Source: a virus (taxonomy: Duplodnaviria > Caudoviricetes). Taken from it: a DNA stretch of 53,473 nt. The position numbers and the translations under genes were made by a program. The stretch covers positions 1-53,473 of IMG/VR virus record IMGVR_UViG_3300012359_000030. The stretch is one strand, 5' to 3'. The notes below the pieces were generated by a model that was not told the origin of the DNA, did no database searches, and saw only the letters and a list, made by a program, of their open reading frames with translations. The stretch's first letter is position 1. Each line of letters opens with the position of its first letter. Of this stretch, positions 41,289-42,734 are shown piece by piece.

Positions 41289-42734
41289 ATGAAATCAGAT
41301 ACTAAAGACAAGAAAATTATCATCCACCAGACGAAGACGCTCTCGTTACGGATCGTCAAGCCACAGTCTATTCCCATGGAAGAATTTACCGATCTAGTGC
41401 GTTATCATCAAATGATAATCTTTCCTGTCTACAACAATGGAGCAATAGATTTATATAAAAAGCTTTTCAAAGCAAAAATCCAAAAAGGCAACGAGGCTCG
41501 GGCGATTAAATACTTCATGAATAAGATAGTATATGCTCCTATTGCCAACACAGTGAAAAATTCCTATATTGCCCTTGGGTATTCCACTAAAATGCAGAGT
41601 TCTTTTTCAGGAAAGCGATTATGGGATTTGCGTTTTGGAGAGGCTACACCGCCCACGATTAAAGCAGACTTTCCCCTTCCTTTCTATAATCAATCAGGAT
41701 TCAAGGTTTCGTCGGAAAATGGAGAATTTATAATTGGCATTCCCTTTGGTCAATATACAAAAAAAACTGTTTCTGATATCGAAAAAAAAACTTCCTTTGC
41801 ATGGGATAAATTTACCCTTGAAGACACCACGAAAAAGACTTTAATAGAACTTCTCCTATCTACAAAAACCAGAAAAATGAATGAAGGCTGGAAGAACAAC
41901 GAAGGGACCGAAGCCGAAATCAAGCGGGTAATGGACGGGACATATCAGGTTACAAGCCTTGAAATACTTCAAAGGGATGATAGTTGGTTTGTGAATTTCA
42001 ATATTGCTTATGACTCATTAAAAAAACAGCCTGATAGAGATAAGATTGCGGGTATTCATATGGGAATTACCCGTCCATTAACTGCCGTTATTTATAACAA
42101 TAAATATAGAGCGCTATCTATCTATCCCAATACCGTCATGCATCTTACCCAAAAACAACTCGCGAGAATTAAAGAACAACGCACCAACAGCAAATATGCT
42201 ACAGGAGGACATGGTAGGAATGCGAAAGTCACCGGAACCGATACCTTATCAGAAGCTTACCGTCAGAGGCGGAAAAAGATAATTGAGGATTGGATCGCTT
42301 CAATAGTGAAATTTGCTATAAATAATGAGATAGGAACTATCTATCTCGAAGACATTTCAAACACTAACTCATTCTTTGCAGCACGTGAGCAAAAACTGAT
42401 CTATCTCGAAGACATTTCAAACACTAACTCATTCCTATCCACCTACAAATATCCTATATCAGCCATTTCCGATACACTTCAGCACAAACTCGAAGAAAAA
42501 GCTATACAGGTAATCCGTAAAAAAGCATATTACGTCAACCAGATTTGTTCTCTCTGCGGTCACTATAATAAAGGATTCACTTACCAGTTCAGAAGAAAAA
42601 ATAAATTCCCGAAAATGAAATGTCAAGGCTGTCTGGAAGCAACTTCTACCGAATTTAATGCGGCAGCAAATGTAGCCAATCCTGATTATGAAAAATTACT
42701 CATCAAACACGGACTTTTACAACTAAAGAAATAA
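41289..42734 (+). CDS. cas12f: Miniature type V effector, Cas12f/Cas14a-like, RuvC catalytic residues substituted
   Basis: TKTLSLRI N-terminus, GGHGRNAK bridge motif, CSLC/CQGC Zn finger, FNAAANVA; adjacent array and cas4/1/2. RuvC-I reads GIHMG, RuvC-III reads STEFNAA. Confidence 0.88.
   Translation: MKSDTKDKKIIIHQTKTLSLRIVKPQSIPMEEFTDLVRYHQMIIFPVYNNGAIDLYKKLFKAKIQKGNEARAIKYFMNKIVYAPIANTVKNSYIALGYSTKMQSSFSGKRLWDLRFGEATPPTIKADFPLPFYNQSGFKVSSENGEFIIGIPFGQYTKKTVSDIEKKTSFAWDKFTLEDTTKKTLIELLLSTKTRKMNEGWKNNEGTEAEIKRVMDGTYQVTSLEILQRDDSWFVNFNIAYDSLKKQPDRDKIAGIHMGITRPLTAVIYNNKYRALSIYPNTVMHLTQKQLARIKEQRTNSKYATGGHGRNAKVTGTDTLSEAYRQRRKKIIEDWIASIVKFAINNEIGTIYLEDISNTNSFFAAREQKLIYLEDISNTNSFLSTYKYPISAISDTLQHKLEEKAIQVIRKKAYYVNQICSLCGHYNKGFTYQFRRKNKFPKMKCQGCLEATSTEFNAAANVANPDYEKLLIKHGLLQLKK
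42339..42434 (+). repeat. 36-bp perfect direct repeat inside cas12f separated by 24 bp
   Basis: ATCTATCTCGAAGACATTTCAAACACTAACTCATTC at 42339-42374 and 42399-42434. Confidence 0.95.

Follow-up and report, generated by a model that had tools for sequence, protein, structure and literature searches.

The cas12f gene of a soil phage raises the question of how a stretch of coding DNA, exactly as long as the phage's own CRISPR repeat, came to be duplicated around a short segment of different sequence. The gene lies in virus record IMGVR_UViG_3300012359_000030, and the window analyzed here is this whole IMG/VR record (53,473 bp; CheckV completeness 99%). The phage carries its own compact CRISPR-Cas cassette on the + strand (positions 41238–45340), the features of which are listed in Table 1. 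The analysis described below indicates that the duplication, 36 bp of target sequence on either side of a 24-nt insert, is probably the scar of an ectopic Cas1-Cas2 spacer integration into the phage's own cas12f.

Comparison of the two copies (42339–42374 and 42399–42434; ATCTATC...CTCATTC, period 60 nt) revealed 36/36 identity. The bases bordering them differ, so the length of the duplication is exactly 36 nt. At the protein level, IYLEDISNTNSF is found at residues 368–379 and again at residues 388–399, around FAAREQKL; the reading frame is maintained and contains no stop codon. In total, 60 nt (20 codons) were added directly after the RuvC-II glutamate of cas12f (E371, which aligns with E422 of Un1Cas12f1). 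The presence of a perfect 36-bp direct repeat around a 24-bp insert, and the in-frame gain of 60 bp, had been claimed in an earlier reading of the sequence (the original prediction); both are borne out by this comparison and by translation of the open reading frame. When the whole record was searched for exact direct repeats of at least 18 nt lying within approximately 200 bp of each other, only the CRISPR array and the 36-bp pair were found. As these are the sole close direct repeats of that length in the record, the pair is beyond chance.

The geometry of the duplication was then compared with that of the array, which contains six exact copies of a 36-nt repeat (43114–43460) and spacers of 25, 27, 27, 27, 25 and 30 nt. 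Measurement of the array confirmed the earlier statement that the duplication has the length of the CRISPR repeat, as well as the quoted spacer range (25–30 bp). The 60-nt unit within cas12f compares with array units of 61–66 nt. Integration by Cas1-Cas2 duplicates the repeat by means of two strand attacks made one repeat length apart, and an off-target integration should therefore duplicate the same number of target bases.

The sequence requirements of such an event are best judged from the type V-A system of Francisella novicida. According to the available text of Hille et al. 2026 (PMC13034035), Cas1 of this bacterium recognizes TCTA, a palindrome of 4 nt, at the ends of the repeat: the TCTA on the leader side (repeat positions 2–5) is indispensable, leader bases −3 to −1 play a part and the repeat's central portion is of negligible importance. 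The same text describes a ruler that sets the second site, and mutations of the repeat 3′ end that lower full-site integration without abolishing it. The TCTA criterion was taken from the literature before the target in cas12f was tested. The repeat of the phage array has the form G-TCTA-C...G-TTAGA-C, with the leader junction ACG/GTCTA (the slash marks the junction), and the target starts ACT/ATCTA. Within the target junction (42333–42344, GGAACT/ATCTAT), the bases at −3 and −2 (AC) match those of the leader. TCTA at positions 2–5, in either orientation, is expected in 0.85% of random 36-bp sites. Aligned in register, the target and the repeat agree at 17/36 positions (47%), a level reached by only 1.26% of genome sites. 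The essential leader-side TCTA, the ruler and the tolerant 3′ end, as set out in the available part of that study (PMC13034035), thus fit the phage scar.

Based on these observations, the following course of events may be proposed. A Cas1-Cas2 complex carrying a prespacer of approximately 24 nt would have mistaken ACT/ATCTA of cas12f (codons 367/368) for the leader-repeat junction ACG/GTCTA, and the leader-side attack would have been made at this place. The ruler of the complex would have set the second attack 36 bp away, on the other strand, and gap repair would have copied the 36 bp on each side of the new segment. The outcome would be a single repeat-spacer-repeat unit within the gene, in frame and directly after the RuvC-II glutamate.

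The presumed integrase is encoded within the same cassette. Residues E155, H216 and D228 of the phage Cas1 are the same in the aligned solved Cas1 8d3p, and we take them to be its catalytic triad. The phage Cas2 has Asp at position 7, the residue on which full-site integration depends according to the relevant part of the F. novicida study (Hille et al. 2026, PMC13034035). Judged from their sequences, the neighboring cas1, cas2 and cas4 genes look intact. The original prediction had interpreted the scar as the footprint of off-target Cas1-Cas2 activity; this interpretation is supported, though not proven, by the repeat-length duplication, the TCTA motif, the absence of the segment from homologs (see below) and the intact-looking cas genes.

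Two alignments of homologous proteins were examined: A1, with 4 homologs (the closest ones, at 51% and 47% identity, among them), and A2, with 39. The 20 extra residues were found in none of the 4 homologs of A1, in none of the 39 of A2 and not in Un1Cas12f1. When the insert is removed, the alignment with the closest relatives becomes gapless, NNEIGT-IYLEDISNTNSFLSTYKYP of the phage protein facing NNDIGT-VHLEDTTSKNSFLAKFKFP. Two residues ahead of the RuvC-II strand, at least 90% of the 40 sequences have Gly, but the inserted copy has Lys; FAAREQKL is accordingly no diverged version of the native pre-strand segment. Since this near-invariant Gly is missing, the 24-mer is, by its sequence, not native to cas12f; a native origin of the 24-mer, named at the outset as the finding that would overturn the proposal, was not seen in any of the 39 aligned homologs. 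The identity of the copies (36/36) and the absence of the insert from homologs mark the insertion as recent and lineage-specific.

The 24-mer has no second copy in the phage at up to 3 mismatches (the best other site has 7), and its sequence is thus foreign to the phage replicon. The insert starts with TTTG (42375–42378), which has the form of a TTTN protospacer adjacent motif (PAM), and none of the six array spacers starts with TTT. A TTTN PAM is reported for the V-A system in the available text of PMC13034035. The TTTG start may reflect an untrimmed prespacer, or chance.

The presence of the insertion in sequencing data was examined in Logan contigs (k = 31) of public soil runs X1 and X2 (depths are given as X1/X2). 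These two runs are identical in contig sizes and could represent a single data set submitted twice; they were therefore counted as one support. In runs X3 and X5 the insertion site lies outside the coverage. An 84-nt unitig (42345–42428) spans both junctions at a depth of 7.2/6.9, which compares with 7.3/7.0 for the left flank (to 42368) and 8.25/7.93 for the right flank (from 42405). The 36-mer forms a separate unitig with a depth of 14/13, twice that of the flanks, and the Logan contigs break at the 36-mer, as expected of a true repeat. Since the depth over the junctions is that of the flanks and the 36-mer has twice this depth, the insertion in cas12f is real and the 36-mer is present twice per genome. 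Reads spanning the duplication had been proposed as a check; contigs built from the k-mers of one data set carry both junctions, which are thus present in the reads. The insertion is carried by essentially all genomes sampled, so that in the population sampled the variant is fixed or nearly so.

The same runs, which hold 93% of the locus words, revealed a difference in the array. A 7,021-nt X1/X2 contig leads from 42405 through the leader to a single repeat with spacer 6, position 43113 being joined to 43425; the segment 43114–43424 is skipped and the sequence is otherwise identical. The array of the X1/X2 population thus holds one spacer, to be compared with five additional leader-side spacers in the window; the insertion in cas12f is present in both. 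Either the five spacers were gained after the insertion, in which case the integrase would have been active, or recombination between repeats removed them.

Several observations weigh against an origin by Cas1-Cas2 integration. At 24 nt, the insert falls one base below the smallest spacer of the array (25 nt); it could be read as 35 + 25, one base being coincident, but the exact 36 would then be lost. Full-site integration by the F. novicida enzyme is best at 27–29 nt, according to the available text of Hille et al. (PMC13034035). On its spacer side the target ends in CATTC, without the TCTA/TAGA motif found at the end of the repeat. Two further likenesses named in the original prediction were checked by count: the 36-mer does agree with the reverse-complement repeat at 7/9 of the first bases, and it does share a 10-mer with the repeat. 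This 10-mer is rare (0.16% of sites) but out of register, and was therefore not counted as a recognition element. Similarity between the insert and the 27 nt upstream of it is borderline (15 identities with gaps, p 0.05–0.08). The shorter array of the X1/X2 population could equally be the result of deletion between repeats.

Searches of sequence collections added two more such points. The 24-mer, which had been suggested as a query for its protospacer, has no exact match (the only kind searched for) in viral_contigs, genome_contigs or metagenome_contigs. Three of the six array spacers (6, 1 and 4), used as controls, were likewise without a match in viral_contigs; as all three controls were blank, the lack of a protospacer is uninformative and carries little weight. 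Alleles without the insert, also called for in the original prediction, were not found in viral or metagenome contigs or among GenBank phages, and the state before insertion is deduced from homologs of at most 51% identity. The 36-mer has no match in viral_contigs; the collections searched may lack the window's own record. A protein-pattern search for related loci yielded 18 pattern hits in viral_contigs and 177 in metagenome_contigs, with no relative among them, and tblastn against GenBank phages gave 4 distant matches only (21–24% identity).

The main rival is a process unrelated to CRISPR, such as template switching or staggered-break repair, that duplicated 36 bp around a 24-nt filler, the match with the repeat length being a coincidence. 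The length of the insert, 1 nt outside the spacer range, and the spacer-side border without the repeat-end motif both speak for it. However, template switching should copy nearby DNA, and the 24-mer is without a relative in the 53-kb genome (best site 7 mismatches); its predicted hairpin is no better than those of shuffles of itself (z −0.18). Such a process would also leave the equality of 36 with 36, the 60-nt period and the TCTA at positions 2–5 as coincidences, and the genome contains only one scar of this kind. We regard this explanation as unlikely.

Illegitimate recombination or gene conversion with a diverged cas12f- or tnpB-like gene might have supplied FAAREQKL together with the following strand. 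The family has a similar helix-strand pattern at the place of insertion, the insert and a native segment 27 nt upstream both start with TTTGC (Phe-Ala), and the borderline global alignment mentioned above points the same way. This origin is nevertheless very improbable: the homologs of A2 contain no similar segment, the conserved Gly column has Lys in the inserted copy, and a donor diverged by approximately 40% over 24 nt would not adjoin 36/36 identity. Moreover, a further cas12f or tnpB is missing from the record, and the three collections contain no exact copy of the 24-mer.

An old tandem duplication of 60–63 bp with a diverged first part, which the weak likeness of FAINNEIGT to FAAREQKL (15 identities with gaps) might suggest, deserves still less credence, as the probability of 36 bp remaining unchanged at the adjoining divergence is approximately 1e-8 (0.6 to the power 36). 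The resemblance of the insert to the preceding codons, noted in the original prediction, survives only as the borderline global score; by semi-global alignment it is at chance level (p 0.52). The diverged 60-bp tandem duplication put forward there as an alternative was rejected on the contrast between 36/36 identity and approximately 15 gapped positions. A simple tandem duplication was rejected as well: the segment between the copies is unlike the flank (approximately 15 aligned positions plus gaps, compared with 36/36). Lastly, the window is a metagenome assembly and a 36-bp repeat exceeds k = 31, so that unitigs break there, but an assembly artefact can be dismissed almost with certainty given the unitig over both junctions and the doubled 36-mer in an independent k-mer assembly and the identical 481-aa product on record from 2 contigs, the longer of 57,655 bp.

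A Cas1-Cas2 integration of the kind proposed for the phage is not without precedent. Nivala, Shipman and Church reportedly described, in 2018, off-target Cas1-Cas2 integration yielding neo-CRISPR units in Escherichia coli with a type I-E system, under over-production of Cas1-Cas2. The phage scar resembles these units in its off-array, spacer-sized insert, its repeat-length target duplication and its partly repeat-like site. Unlike the products of over-production, it is natural, and it concerns a phage and a type V module, lying in frame in that module's own effector gene. The natural cases that this work reportedly gave are described as circumstantial only (10.1101/148544). The off-target site favored in vitro by Cas1-Cas2 of Pyrococcus furiosus is 43% identical to the repeat, shares border bases with it and is attacked at positions one repeat apart, as stated in the accessible part of that report (PMC6698737); the target in cas12f, at 47%, is similar in this respect and likewise has the leader-side border motif. 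The P. furiosus case, as far as the same text goes, concerns a plasmid in vitro, a 30-bp repeat and G/C borders, with no repaired product in a living genome (PMC6698737). Ectopic acquisition in Streptococcus thermophilus and Streptococcus mutans, in the portions of the literature available on it, also uses a site that is not leader-proximal, but there the targets are true repeats within the array and not a coding gene. Literature searches turned up no published case of a cas gene, or of a phage, with a spacer-like insertion.

The mechanism is thus of a known kind, off-target Cas1-Cas2 activity having been seen in engineered E. coli and in vitro, and the novelty lies in a natural case involving a phage and a type V system. 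On balance, we lean towards the view that a virus-borne adaptation module was active in nature and wrote a near-fixed, in-frame neo-CRISPR unit into its own nuclease-dead-looking Cas12f. If so, the locus would be a ready-made natural substrate for probing which target rules type V integrases follow. The case would be clean as well: a single event, with the responsible module 1–3 kb away, an exact duplication length and a motif predicted by independent biochemistry. Such an event would suggest that an adaptation module carried by a phage is functional in nature, something seldom documented, and would show the self-inflicted cost of carrying an integrase.

The product of the gene with the insertion matches 7l48/7c7l (Un1Cas12f1) with E = 7.6e-68, as well as PF07282, and a Foldseek search with its AlphaFold2 (AF2) model identified 7c7l_A (E = 3.2e-32). 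By sequence and fold similarity to characterized Cas12f1, the effector is Cas12f. The gene call of the collection itself is shorter (481 aa, with the start at M18). The AF2 model, built with alignment A2, has a mean predicted local distance difference test (pLDDT) value of 83. In this model the first copy is used as the strand (residues 365–372) and residues 378–399 have pLDDT values below 50; the choice of the first copy is weak evidence, as no homolog in the alignment has the insert. Folding of the protein is probably preserved: the first copy would act as the RuvC strand, and the remainder would form a longer loop after the RuvC-II glutamate.

This loop is presumably the place of the type V nuclease lid motif. 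The lid is described as essential in Un1Cas12f1, whose RuvC triad is D326/E422/D510, with E422 as the RuvC-II residue, in the available text of PMC8053092. In the phage protein the triad is H/E/E and not D/E/D, consisting of H274 (42057–42059), E371 (42348–42350) and E472 (42651–42653). Of the 40 aligned sequences, 37 have D in the first of the corresponding columns, all have E in the second and 38 have D in the third. The His is also present in P0003 and P0004, the two closest homologs, indicating that it predates the insert. The H/E/E triad suggests a non-cutting RNA-guided binder accompanied by a full adaptation module. The added 20 residues lie beside the RuvC-II Glu of this H/E/E Cas12f, yet the variant spread; if the enzyme was already non-cutting, the price of the insertion may have been low, and this would account for the spread.

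Table 1. Positions of the cas12f duplication and of the CRISPR-Cas features in the window.
Feature	Position	Strand	Remarks
cas12f	41238–42734	+	498 aa; gene with the insertion; matches 7l48, 7c7l_A and PF07282
Duplicated 36-bp target, first copy	42339–42374	+	codons I368–F379, including the RuvC-II Glu E371; starts A-TCTA
24-nt insert	42375–42398	+	encodes FAAREQKL (residues 380–387); probable spacer
Duplicated 36-bp target, second copy	42399–42434	+	codons I388–F399
Leader-repeat junction TAGACG/GTCTAC	43108–43119	+	natural integration site
CRISPR array	43114–43512	+	six exact 36-nt repeats and a degenerate last repeat from 43491
cas4 (type V)	43534–44082	+	TIGR04328, 155 bits (cut-off 70)
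cas1, presumed integrase	44086–45057	+	PF01867, E = 6.6e-48; TIGR04329 (type V), 242 bits, below the cut-off of 300
cas2	45059–45340	+	Asp at position 7

As shown in Table 1, the cassette is a hybrid: its effector is Cas12f, yet the models matched by Cas4 and Cas1, TIGR04328 and TIGR04329, are those of type V-A (PREFRAN). These two families, the 36-nt repeat and its terminal TCTA/TAGA palindromes are shared with the V-A system of F. novicida, as portrayed in the available text of PMC13034035. In contrast to that system, the effector is not Cas12a and the Cas1 score remains below the V-A cut-off. The phage spacers are also shorter, at 25–30 nt compared with 27–29 nt in the accessible part of the F. 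novicida study (PMC13034035). The C-terminus of Cas4 (KSSNSIYAALL) is without cysteine, which would fit a protein missing the Fe-S cluster cysteines.

No self-targeting was detected, the six array spacers all being without a match in the window at up to 7 mismatches, and no other array with the same repeat was found in viral_contigs or genome_contigs. A lytic tail or transglycosylase gene adjoins the CRISPR-Cas locus, and a 380-nt spacer region lies between the cas12f gene and the array. An Rfam scan of 42600–43700 gave one chance-level match only. By eye, AATGAATTGTAGAC (42973–42986) agrees at 13/14 positions with the end of the reverse-complement repeat, and the leader end, TGTAGACG (43103–43113), is likewise repeat-like. 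These pieces upstream of the array may be an anti-repeat or part of a trans-activating CRISPR RNA, or decayed repeats.

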